From NCBI RefSeq assembly GCF_003334815.1, contig NZ_QOWO01000005.1: a DNA stretch of 64,000 nucleotides; one strand, 5' to 3'. The notes below the pieces were generated by a model that was not told the origin of the DNA, did not search any database, and saw nothing but the letters and a program-made list of their open reading frames with translations. The stretch comes from Escherichia coli (GTDB lineage: Bacteria; Pseudomonadota; Gammaproteobacteria; Enterobacterales; Enterobacteriaceae). Shown in pieces: positions 14,448-24,200 of this stretch. The first letter of the stretch is position 1. Each line of letters starts with the position of its first letter. Position numbers and translations under genes: made by a program.

Positions 14448-16004
14448 ATGCTGGTGAGAACACGACATCTGGTCGGCCTTATTTCGGGAGTACTGATTCT
14501 TTCAGTATTGCTGCCTGTCGGCTTAAGCATCTGGCTGGCCCATCAGCAGGTAGAAACATCGTTTATTGAAGAGCTGGATACCTATTCCTCCCGCGTCGCT
14601 ATTCGAGCCAATAAGGTGGCGACACAAGGGAAAGATGCGCTGCAGGAGCTGGAAAGATGGCAAGGCGCTGCCTGTAGCGAAGCCCATCTCATGGAAATGC
14701 GTCGGGTATCTTACAGTTATCGCTATATTCAGGAAGTGGCTTATATCGATAACAACGTTCCCCAGTGTTCGTCTCTGGAGCATGAAAGTCCGCCCGATAC
14801 CTTCCCCGAGCCAGGTAAAATTTCGAAAGATGGTTATCGTGTCTGGTTAACATCGCATAACGATTTAGGCATTATCCGTTACATGGTCGCCATGGGAACG
14901 GCACATTATGTCGTCATGATCGACCCCGCTTCCTTTATTGATGTCATTCCCTATAGCTCATGGCAAATTGATGCCGCCATTATTGGCAATGCCCATAACG
15001 TTGTCATAACCAGCAGCGATGAAATTGCTCAGGGAATTATTACCAGGCTACAAAAAACACCCGGTGAGCATATCGAAAATAATGGAATCATTTACGATAT
15101 CCTGCCCTTACCGGAGATGAATATTTCGATCATCACATGGGCTTCAACGAAAATGTTGCAGAAAGGCTGGCATCGGCAAGTCTTTATTTGGTTACCGCTC
15201 GGGTTGGTGATTGGCCTGCTGGCAGCGATGTTTGTGCTGCGTATTTTGCGCCGTATTCAGTCACCGCATCATCGGCTGCAGGATGCTATCGAAAATCGTG
15301 ATATTTGCGTGCACTATCAGCCGATTGTCTCCTTAGCCAATGGCAAAATTGTCGGTGCTGAGGCACTGGCGCGCTGGCCGCAGACAGACGGTAGTTGGTT
15401 GTCACCAGATAGTTTTATTCCGCTGGCACAGCAAACGGGCCTTTCTGAGCCATTGACGCTACTGATTATAAGAAGCGTCTTTGAAGATATGGGCGACTGG
15501 CTGCGTCAGCATCCACAGCAGCATATTTCGATCAATCTTGAATCCCCCGTGCTCACCTCGGAAAAAATCCCGCAATTGCTGCGTGACATGATCAATCACT
15601 ATCAGGTTAATCCCAGACAGATCGCGCTTGAACTCACTGAACGCGAGTTTGCCGATCCGAAAACCAGCGCCCCGATAATTTCTCGCTACCGGGAGGCGGG
15701 CCATGAAATTTATCTTGATGATTTTGGTACGGGGTATTCAAGTTTAAGTTATTTACAGGATCTGGATGTCGACATTCTGAAGATCGATAAATCTTTCGTT
15801 GATGCGCTGGAATATAAAAATGTCACGCCGCATATCATCGAAATGGCAAAAACACTGAAACTGAAAATGGTAGCGGAGGGAATCGAAACCAGTAAACAAG
15901 AAGAGTGGTTACGCCAGCATGGCGTGCACTACGGTCAGGGCTGGCTCTACAGCAAGGCATTACCGAAAGAAGATTTCTTACGCTGGGCCGAGCAACATTT
16001 GTGA
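14448..16004 (+). CDS. pdeB: c-di-GMP phosphodiesterase (EAL domain) PdeB/YlaB
   Basis: ORF 14448..16004 (+), 518 aa; N-terminal TM/periplasmic sensor region plus C-terminal EAL domain (ELTE motif). The true start may be the GTG two codons downstream (14454), which would give 516 aa. Confidence 0.9.
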   Translation: MLVRTRHLVGLISGVLILSVLLPVGLSIWLAHQQVETSFIEELDTYSSRVAIRANKVATQGKDALQELERWQGAACSEAHLMEMRRVSYSYRYIQEVAYIDNNVPQCSSLEHESPPDTFPEPGKISKDGYRVWLTSHNDLGIIRYMVAMGTAHYVVMIDPASFIDVIPYSSWQIDAAIIGNAHNVVITSSDEIAQGIITRLQKTPGEHIENNGIIYDILPLPEMNISIITWASTKMLQKGWHRQVFIWLPLGLVIGLLAAMFVLRILRRIQSPHHRLQDAIENRDICVHYQPIVSLANGKIVGAEALARWPQTDGSWLSPDSFIPLAQQTGLSEPLTLLIIRSVFEDMGDWLRQHPQQHISINLESPVLTSEKIPQLLRDMINHYQVNPRQIALELTEREFADPKTSAPIISRYREAGHEIYLDDFGTGYSSLSYLQDLDVDILKIDKSFVDALEYKNVTPHIIEMAKTLKLKMVAEGIETSKQEEWLRQHGVHYGQGWLYSKALPKEDFLRWAEQHL

Positions 16005-16045
16005 ATTTTTGGGCTGACGGCACGCCGCACAGCCCGTCACGCTAC

Positions 16046-16399
16046 CTATTCGTCGATGATTGACTCGAATCCGCCATAGATCATTCGCTTGCCGTCAAAC
16101 GGCATGGACTCGCCGAACTCTTTCATCCGTGGGTCCGACATCATCTTTTGATTAGCAGCGTCGCGGACCTCTTTTGAAGGGTATTCAATCCAGCTAAAGA
16201 CAACCTCTTCATTCTCTTCCGCTTTCACCGCCATACGAAAATCGGTCACTTTGCCATCCGGTACATCGCTGGCCCAGCATTCGACAATACGAAGCGCGCC
16301 AAACTCTTTAAACAATGGCGCAGCCTTAGCGGCCATTTCCCGATAGGCATCCTTTTTATCGGCAGGAACGGCAACCACAAAACCATCAACATACTTCAT
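16046..16399 (-). CDS. ybaA: DUF1428-family protein
   Basis: ORF 16046..16399 (-), 117 aa. Confidence 0.88.
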   Translation of the reverse strand: MKYVDGFVVAVPADKKDAYREMAAKAAPLFKEFGALRIVECWASDVPDGKVTDFRMAVKAEENEEVVFSWIEYPSKEVRDAANQKMMSDPRMKEFGESMPFDGKRMIYGGFESIIDE

Positions 16400-16509
16400 C
16401 AGACATACCTCCGAAGCGTACTGCGCAGCCAGACAATTCTTGCGACGTCAGTTGTGGTTAAAGTTTAGCCATGTTGGGATTTTTTGACGAAACGGTGGGA
16501 GGCAGAAAT

Positions 16510-16623
16510 GGGTGGGGGCCCTGCCAGCTACATCCCGGCACACGCGTCATCTGCCTTGGCTGCTTCCTTCCGGACCTGACCTGGTAAACAGAGTAGCGTT
16601 GCGGGAGAACCAACAGAGCCCCC
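16510..16623 (-). ncRNA. ffs: 4.5S RNA (signal recognition particle RNA)
   Basis: Reverse complement reads GGGGGCTCTGTTGGTTCTCCCGCAACGCTACTCTGTTTACCAGGTCAGGTCCGGAAGGAAGCAGCCAAGGCAGATGACGCGTGTGCCGGGATGTAGCTGGCAGGGCCCCCACCC, 114 nt, matching recalled ffs including the conserved domain IV region. Confidence 0.95.
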
Positions 16624-16699
16624 ATTGAGAGCGTTGAGAACCAACGCGCAGGCGCATTATCACTGCTGCCCCGGCTAATTGCAACCCATCGCGTGCCAG

Positions 16700-17089
16700 A
16701 TGCTGGTTTCTTGCGCAATGCGACTTCACTCGGGCGTTTTTCCAGATTATGCTGAAAAATTACCTCAGGAAGAAAAGATGGAAAAAGAAGATTCATTTCC
16801 CCAACGCGTCTGGCAAATCGTCGCCGCTATTCCCGAAGGCTATGTCACCACTTACGGTGATGTGGCGAAACTGGCGGGATCGCCCCGCGCCGCGCGCCAG
16901 GTGGGCGGTGTGTTAAAGCGTCTCCCTGAAGGCAGCACCTTACCCTGGCACCGGGTGGTTAATCGCCACGGCACAATTTCGCTAACCGGACCGGATTTAC
17001 AGCGTCAGCGACAGGCATTACTGGCAGAAGGTGTGATGGTATCGGGAAGCGGGCAAATCGACTTGCAGCGTTATCGCTGGAACTACTAA
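16700..17089 (+). CDS. atl: DNA base-flipping protein, alkyltransferase-like (Atl/YbaZ)
   Basis: ORF 16679..17089 (+); trimmed to MLVSCAMRL..., 129 aa; start is ambiguous, with an alternative Met at 16778 (MEKEDSF...). Confidence 0.85.
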   Translation: MLVSCAMRLHSGVFPDYAEKLPQEEKMEKEDSFPQRVWQIVAAIPEGYVTTYGDVAKLAGSPRAARQVGGVLKRLPEGSTLPWHRVVNRHGTISLTGPDLQRQRQALLAEGVMVSGSGQIDLQRYRWNY

Positions 17090-17119
17090 CCCTCTCCGGG
17101 CGGAGAGGGTTAACGTCGC

Positions 17120-17692
17120 TTAATATTGCGTAGGAGCTGGAACTGCCGAAGACGGATTCACCTGAGTTGGTGAAGTCGAAGGTACGGTAGTCGTTGCGCC
17201 ACCGCTGGCCTGAACCGGCACGGCGGTTTGCTGTACCGGCACCAATGTCAGGTCGGCTTTAGTTCCGCCCTGGTTGATCACCGGCTGAACGGTATCGGTG
17301 ATAAATACCAGTTTGTCATTCACGGTAATCGCCGCACTCAACAGAATACGCGCGTTCGGCTGAACATCTGCCGGGTTAAATGGCAGAACAAAGCTGAATG
17401 GTGACTGTTTACCTTCAGTACGCACCGCTTTCTGCGCCAGCACTTTTGACGGTGCATCGGCTAACGACGCGTCAGAAAGTGTCACGGTCAGCACAGCATC
17501 AGGCGGCAGTGCGACTTTCTGACGGATCCAGACGGTACCGGAGACATTCGGTTGCTGGATAGCTGGTTGTTGTGTTGCTGAAATAGACGTATTTGCAGCC
17601 GGTGCTGGCGTCTGAATATCCGCGCTTTTATCTGCGCAAGCCGCCAACGCAATCGCAACCGCTAAACCACTGGCCATGTGCACGAGTTTCAT
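17120..17692 (-). CDS. ybaY: outer-membrane lipoprotein of unknown function
   Basis: ORF 17120..17692 (-), 190 aa; signal peptide with lipobox LAAC, Pro/Ala/Thr-rich linker. Confidence 0.88.
   Translation of the reverse strand: MKLVHMASGLAVAIALAACADKSADIQTPAPAANTSISATQQPAIQQPNVSGTVWIRQKVALPPDAVLTVTLSDASLADAPSKVLAQKAVRTEGKQSPFSFVLPFNPADVQPNARILLSAAITVNDKLVFITDTVQPVINQGGTKADLTLVPVQQTAVPVQASGGATTTVPSTSPTQVNPSSAVPAPTQY

Positions 17693-20653: not shown

Positions 20654-24200
<3,547 letters not shown>

Follow-up and report, generated by a model that had tools for sequence, protein, structure and literature searches.

The 4.5S RNA gene ffs of an Escherichia coli contig and a possible landing site for integrase-borne islands at its 3' end

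Identity, structure and conservation of ffs

The minus-strand gene lying between ybaA and atl in the window, a stretch of 64,000 nt of Escherichia coli DNA analysed here as a whole, is ffs, the single-copy gene of the E. coli 4.5S RNA, a small bacterial signal recognition particle (SRP) RNA (probability about 0.99). This identification is correct and concerns a textbook gene that is already known. A preceding sequence-only reading had named a 4.5S RNA of 114 nt at this place and had proposed a covariance-model search as its check. Strand, both ends and length turned out as claimed, with the gene reading GGGGGCTCTG...CCCCCACCC, and the minus strand when read directly gave GGGGGCTCTGTTGGTTCTCCCGCAACGCTACTCTGTTTACCAGGTCAGGTCCGGAAGGAAGCAGCCAAGGCAGATGACGCGTGTGCCGGGATGTAGCTGGCAGGGCCCCCACCC, which is exactly 114 nt long (Table 1).

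The covariance-model search returned a minus-strand match to the Rfam family RF00169 (Bacteria_small_SRP) with 68.1 bits against a gathering score of 40, extending over the full length of the model (positions 1-97 of 97). The E-value was 2.6e-14 in a 3-kb search and 5.5e-13 when the whole 64-kb window was searched at the gathering threshold; score and E-values thus place the match far beyond chance. Overlapping matches to families of clan CL00003 were suppressed in the Rfam search. In the same search no other Rfam family reached threshold in the ffs region, and neither tRNA nor tmRNA genes were found around ffs. Elsewhere in the window, the sRNA sraA (RF02029; 34255-34350, plus strand; 106.7 bits against a gathering score of 56) was the sole Rfam family besides ffs above threshold. 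The RF00169 model comprises 97 nt, as does the RefSeq annotation that builds on it, and the mature 114-nt RNA is longer by 8 nt at its 5' end and by 9 nt at its 3' end.

Positions 16400-16700 of the window (301 nt) match K-12 MG1655 with 100% identity, as they do many other E. coli genomes, and the K-12 annotation at this site reads 'ffs: signal recognition particle sRNA small type'. The gene order in K-12 is tesB, ybaY, a gene annotated as 'MGMT family protein', ffs, ybaA, pdeB. The MGMT-family gene corresponds to atl/ybaZ, and its orthologue in Klebsiella aerogenes carries the label ybaZ. Since ybaA and the MGMT-family gene both map to the window on either side of the RNA gene, the earlier placement of ffs between ybaA and atl is right. 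Among 5,426 complete E. coli genomes the 114-nt sequence was present as a single copy in 5,425, with at least 99% identity in 5,421. For expression, processing and Ffh binding we relied on literature for the identical K-12 sequence.

Table 1. Features of the ffs region and of related loci. Positions refer to the window unless a locus is named.
Feature	Position	Strand	Basis
Mature 4.5S RNA (ffs), 114 nt, GGGGGCUCUG...CCCCCACCC	16510..16623	-	direct sequence read, K-12 identity, fold
Rfam RF00169 Bacteria_small_SRP stretch, 97-nt core annotated as ffs in RefSeq	16519..16615	-	covariance model; equivalent K-12 positions
Domain IV core GGUCAGGUCCGGAAGGAAGCAGCC (RNA nt 43-66), with tetraloop and internal-loop residues	16558..16581	-	Rfam consensus match
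GGAA tetraloop (RNA nt 53-56), hairpin tip, closed by C52-G57	16568..16571	-	invariant in six genera
Sigma-70 promoter: -35 TTGCAA (16684-16679), 17-nt spacer, -10 GATAAT (16661-16656)	16656..16684	-	promoter scan
5' leader of pre-4.5S RNA, removed by RNase P	16624..16649	-	fold; literature (PMC5499578, PMC7049720)
3' trailer AUUUCUG, abutting the mature 3' end	16503..16509	-	cross-genus conservation
Candidate unoccupied attB core TGGCAGGGCCCCCACCCATTTCTG (RNA nt 98-114 plus 7 nt)	16503..16526	-	direct repeats in occupied genomes
Spurious 112-aa ORF through ffs, the ffs promoter and the atl start	16458..16796	-	ORF list
Spurious 60-aa ORF over the 5' two-thirds of ffs	16547..16729	-	ORF list
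ybaA (DUF1428 protein), downstream neighbour	16046..16399	-	ORF list, K-12 annotation
atl/ybaZ (MGMT-family alkyltransferase-like protein), divergent upstream neighbour	16778..17089	+	mapped K-12 annotation, ORF list
Occupied site, S1-SRB-02-B	locus L012, 20169-30420		
Occupied site, MB19	locus L013, 15977-30020		
Occupied site, XJ34	locus L014, 15977-25856		
Occupied site, 2017-02-1CC	locus L015, 15977-22960		
int-flanking inverted repeats, S1-SRB-02-B	locus L012, 20169-20308 / 21395-21534		
int-flanking inverted repeats, MB19, XJ34 and 2017-02-1CC	loci L013, L014 and L015, ~15977-16116 / 17203-17346		
Aeromonas integrase homologue	locus L008, 1383-2489 (also locus L016)	+	

The minimum free energy fold of the ffs RNA is one long hairpin (-57 kcal/mol; z -3.15 relative to shuffled sequences). 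Because the ffs copies of E. coli are almost invariant, diverged orthologues were used for the analysis of covariation. Sequences of Klebsiella pneumoniae, K. aerogenes, Enterobacter hormaechei, Providencia alcalifaciens, Proteus mirabilis and Aeromonas caviae, taken from chromosomes or chromosome fragments that are filed as plasmids in a plasmid collection, were aligned. Over the 42 base pairs of the hairpin, 97.9% of the alignment cells were standard-paired (E. coli plus the six diverged species, representing six genera), and compensatory changes on both sides were found in 10 of the 42 pairs across the six genera. When the partner was slid by one to three columns only 0-3 such pairs resulted, and 0 of 500 shuffles reached the observed value.

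The domain IV core GGUCAGGUCCGGAAGGAAGCAGCC agrees with all upper-case positions of the Rfam consensus GGUCAGGgCcGGAAgGcAGCAGCc. Its motif consists of the GGAA tetraloop, which is of the GNRA type and closed by a C-G pair, with the flanks GGUCAGG and AGCAGCC. The tetraloop is unchanged in all nine aligned sequences, and across genera the core has two variable positions only, which form one compensated pair (U50-A59 to A-U). The covariance score, the domain IV motif, the covarying hairpin, and a promoter of its own together with the ubiquitous single copy thus all mark the gene as a bacterial small SRP RNA gene. No evidence contradicting this identity was found in any of the analyses reported here.

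Two rare variants of ffs were observed among the E. coli genomes. EC77 carries a 3-nt insertion, CTC, past RNA nt 30 in an internal loop (locus L002, 431-433), and p1-49 (locus L003) carries the exchange C80U, which converts G27-C80 into a G-U pair, a state also present in Klebsiella. Both could be real polymorphisms or assembly errors. In the plasmid collection, several of the 'plasmid' records containing ffs are 4-5 Mb in size (E. coli, Klebsiella pneumoniae, Proteus, Aeromonas) and were treated as chromosomes or chromosome fragments. A plasmid-borne ffs was rejected: many records have this size, and the two smaller ones inspected, a 119-kb Salmonella and a 361-kb Enterobacter record, show the usual chromosomal ffs neighbours. 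A phage-borne ffs was rejected as well, the sole 'phage' match (OR845144.1, UNVERIFIED_ORG) being a 9-kb low-coverage contig that is most likely host DNA.

An ORF-only view of the region offers a different account, in which one of two open reading frames of 112 and 60 aa is a real gene, the region is protein-coding and the RNA match is secondary. Both frames, which the sequence-only reading had noted as overlapping ffs and dismissed, do appear on the minus strand in the mechanically produced ORF list. The 112-aa frame is also open in Klebsiella and Enterobacter (101-126 aa), and in Providencia and Aeromonas no stop codon interrupts the part of the 60-aa frame inside ffs; that close relatives keep the frames open is due simply to the near-invariance of the RNA among them. 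However, neither ORF is annotated in K-12 RefSeq, and NCBIfam contained no family for the 112-aa ORF and gave only a chance-level match for the 60-aa ORF (E 0.14; 11 bits, with a cutoff of 70 bits). Stop codons interrupt the 112-aa frame within ffs in both Providencia and Aeromonas, and in Proteus a frameshift affects both ORF frames. The start of the 60-aa ORF is not conserved, the first start in Klebsiella pneumoniae lying far downstream and leaving an ORF of 30 aa. Furthermore, the variable sites are distributed over codon positions 1, 2 and 3 as 17, 11 and 11 in the 112-aa frame and as 7, 8 and 10 in the 60-aa frame, that is, with no third-position excess, and 32 of the 39 interspecies variable sites fall into paired columns, with compensatory changes. 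Between genera the sequence outside ffs and its promoter is unrelated. The protein-coding account, to which we assign a very small probability, is effectively refuted, and the earlier judgement of both ORFs as spurious holds.

Still less probable is that the match reflects a hairpin formed by chance, a pseudogene or otherwise degenerate copy, or some other structured RNA merely resembling SRP RNA. All that speaks for it is that covariance models can in general give weak scores to GC-rich hairpins. The match at this site is 28 bits above the gathering score with an E-value of 5.5e-13 over the window, the sequence is present once per genome in 5,425 of 5,426 genomes, and the area contains no tRNA or tmRNA and no other Rfam family at threshold. 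Each base is identical to the characterised K-12 ffs, and this identity refutes the alternative.

Expression, processing and surroundings of ffs

The predicted sigma-70 promoter of ffs is followed by a GC-rich discriminator, GCGCC, after the -10 hexamer. Klebsiella, Enterobacter, Providencia and Proteus all retain both promoter hexamers, and the spacer and the sequence further upstream diverge. In RNA-seq data, 5' ends of pre-4.5S RNA map mainly to -26, where a sigma-70 start had been predicted (PMC5499578). This position corresponds to window position 16649, 7 nt past the -10 hexamer, and the published start fits the promoter exactly. The resulting leader length is 26 nt by RNA-seq, compared with 22-24 nt in older work (PMC5499578). 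In the fold of 16647..16495 the leader holds a hairpin of 6 bp (GCGUUG/CAACGC, 16647-16631) beside the main hairpin. It is cleaved off by E. coli RNase P (PMC5499578, PMC7049720), a cut that generates the GGGGG 5' end according to literature on the identical K-12 sequence.

At the other end of the RNA, the ATTTCTG trailer is kept in Klebsiella and Proteus and reads GTTTCTG in Aeromonas; the sequence beyond it is unrelated between genera. A consensus scan detected no separate, canonical intrinsic terminator downstream of ffs, and for this reason our view of 3'-end formation stays an inference. A terminator-like site at 16632..16618 on the minus strand was rejected as a chance match: it straddles the RNase P site and consists of leader and the first bases of the RNA. 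AUUUCUG is probably the U-rich end of transcription before 3' trimming. In such a scheme the 4.5S hairpin together with the U-rich AUUUCUG would end transcription, and exonucleases would then trim the 3' end.

According to literature on the identical sequence, the SRP forms when 4.5S RNA associates, at picomolar affinity, with Ffh at its M domain, and the contact to the M domain is made by the internal loops adjoining the GGAA tetraloop (PMC4737761). On ribosomes exposing a signal or signal-anchor sequence, the FtsY NG domain docks first at the tetraloop in an 'early' complex; GTP hydrolysis is triggered at the RNA's distal end, and the nascent chain is passed to SecYEG (PMC4737761; cryo-EM of the E. 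coli RNC-SRP-FtsY complex, addressing the tetraloop and the distal site). 4.5S RNA is essential (PMC5499578), and 5'-extended forms are still functional (PMC5499578, PMC7049720).

Several observations concern the neighbouring genes. The start of atl/ybaZ is ambiguous: PGAP assigns the ATG at 16778 (103 aa, preceded by AGGAAG), and longer in-frame versions begin at the ATG at 16700 (129 aa) or the TTG at 16679 (136 aa), the latter reaching the -35 hexamer of ffs on the opposite strand. Between the convergent genes atl and ybaY, a perfect hairpin, AACCCTCTCCGCCCGGAGAGGGTT, is located at 17087-17129 (minus strand) and is probably a bidirectional terminator. A match to rnk_leader at the same positions was sub-threshold (23.8 bits against 50) and was discarded as merely this atl/ybaY hairpin. 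The genes immediately 3' of ffs vary by genus, with ybaA in E. coli, two small hypothetical genes in Klebsiella and Enterobacter, no gene between ffs and the EAL-domain pdeB orthologue in Salmonella, and hha/tomB in Providencia. When these genera were compared with 16046-16509 of the window, similarity ended about 7-9 nt past the RNA 3' end, which is the boundary of the att core described below. This break is consistent with repeated insertion and loss at the site.

Integrase islands at the 3' end of ffs in other genomes

Comparative analysis of sequences tentatively suggests, at odds that we put somewhat below even, that the 3' end of ffs in the window is an empty site for ffs-specific tyrosine-integrase islands, which are undescribed for E. 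coli in the literature searched; they would occur in about 1% of genomes as insertions of 7-14 kb, with an unusual inverted attP layout, cargo in both orientations and a relative in Aeromonas. The candidate attB core occurs once in the window, and the site there is empty. When the 301-nt region was used as a query against the 5,426 E. coli genomes, 64 genomes yielded no single match covering at least 80% of it, and some had matches in two places. In S1-SRB-02-B the match breaks 7 nt past the 3' end of ffs, and an insertion of 10,228 bp separates ffs from ybaA. This insertion opens with a site-specific integrase gene and has a perfect direct repeat of 24 bp, TGGCAGGGCCCCCACCCATTTCTG, at its ends. 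As the repeat comprises RNA nt 98-114 plus 7 nt, the full 114-nt RNA is regenerated.

Three more occupied genomes had the same core and different cargo, with insertions of 14,020 bp in MB19, 9,856 bp in XJ34 and 6,960 bp in 2017-02-1CC. In the four E. coli genomes the islands between ffs and ybaA thus range from 6,960 to 14,020 bp and are bounded by direct repeats of 22-24 bp. The designation as attB is based on this arrangement, in which the core direct repeat bounds an integrase-led insertion and collinearity with the empty site is otherwise kept on both flanks. The island integrase was detected in 62 of the 5,426 E. coli genomes (about 1%) with 92-100% DNA identity, and was classified as a tyrosine recombinase by its match to phrog_1 (E 4.9e-38), accompanied by weak Xer-type NCBIfam matches.

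The cargo of the islands is variable and looks defence-related. In S1-SRB-02-B it includes genes for an NsnB/AriA-like AAA ATPase (E 1e-55) and, by annotation, for a type III restriction endonuclease subunit R. An HNH endonuclease gene is found in MB19, and a dual-OB/DUF488/DUF4326 trio is common to MB19 and 2017-02-1CC. In each of the four islands the annotation shows a DUF2188 gene adjoining a serine-recombinase gene; for this pair, matches to PDC-S16 (E 2.5e-38) and to the PHROG 'DNA invertase' phrog_125 (E 1e-45) were obtained in S1-SRB-02-B.

Moreover, each of the four occupied genomes contains a complete attP of about 260 bp in inverted orientation, about 40 nt past the stop codon of int. 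This copy is composed of an int-side arm of about 118 nt, a 22-nt core and an attR-side arm of 108-124 nt, and its parts are 100% identical to the attL and attR arms of the same genome. Due to the inverted attP behind int, perfect inverted repeats of 139-142 nt stand on both sides of the int body of 1,086-1,090 nt. The cargo was found in both orientations with respect to int: the DUF2188/invertase pair lies by int in S1-SRB-02-B and MB19, whereas in XJ34 and 2017-02-1CC it lies on the opposite strand by attR. The two orientations suggest that inversion has taken place between the attP copies, through the integrase or through homologous recombination.

Directly 3' of ffs in Aeromonas caviae (NZ_AP026896.1, 2668000-2698400) lies a gene for a full-length integrase homologue of 37% identity, and about 18.9 kb away at least 43 nt of the 3' part of ffs are repeated in direct orientation. 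No inverted attP copy was found at this Aeromonas caviae ffs island. The position of the homologue suggests that the specificity of this integrase family for ffs spans two bacterial orders.

Comparison with known SRP RNAs and with other elements at ffs

The identification of ffs matters for annotation only. With ORFs alone in view, an essential RNA gene would be overlooked and two false ORFs might be called over it instead; the covariance-model check settles both problems. If the island reading is true, ffs joins the small RNA genes, such as those of tRNA and tmRNA, whose 3' ends receive integrase-borne defence islands in E. coli. Likewise, if the duplicated inverted attP is what it appears to be, it would represent a concrete case of an island with flippable modules, a point of modest importance.

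Compared with ffs of E. coli K-12 (b0455), all 114 nt of the 4.5S RNA and at least 301 nt including both flanks are identical, and the neighbours are the same, with ybaA on one side and atl/ybaZ, ybaY and tesB on the other; no differences were detected. With respect to RF00169, the domain IV core, the GGAA tetraloop and the hairpin correspond to the consensus, and the mature E. coli RNA extends beyond the 97-nt model. The domain IV (helix 8) motif that binds Ffh or SRP54 is common to the Bacillus subtilis scRNA (Bacteria_large_SRP) and to the eukaryotic and archaeal 7S SRP RNAs of clan CL00003. Bacteria_large_SRP and 7S SRP RNAs are much longer and possess an extra Alu domain, whereas the sequence in the window has the minimal hairpin form only.

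The use of ffs as a target for mobile elements has been reported for other systems. It is the attachment site of the E. faecalis phage phiEf11, called novel in 2025 (PMC12540744), a target of type I-F3b CRISPR-associated Tn7-like transposons (PMC11406308), and the location of defence islands in V. cholerae (bioRxiv 10.1101/2024.07.25.605194). In the searchable literature we found no description of E. coli integrase islands at ffs or of the inverted-attP layout, which is not proof of absence. The E. coli and Aeromonas islands resemble phiEf11, the I-F3b transposons and the V. cholerae islands in having a conserved small-RNA gene as landing site, often with defence cargo. The E. coli islands are distinguished by a tyrosine integrase, a core of 22-24 bp, regeneration of the full RNA and a second, inverted attP, whereas phiEf11 alters the 3' end of the RNA. 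Unlike the E. coli integrase islands, the CRISPR-associated transposons insert downstream of ffs by guide-RNA targeting.
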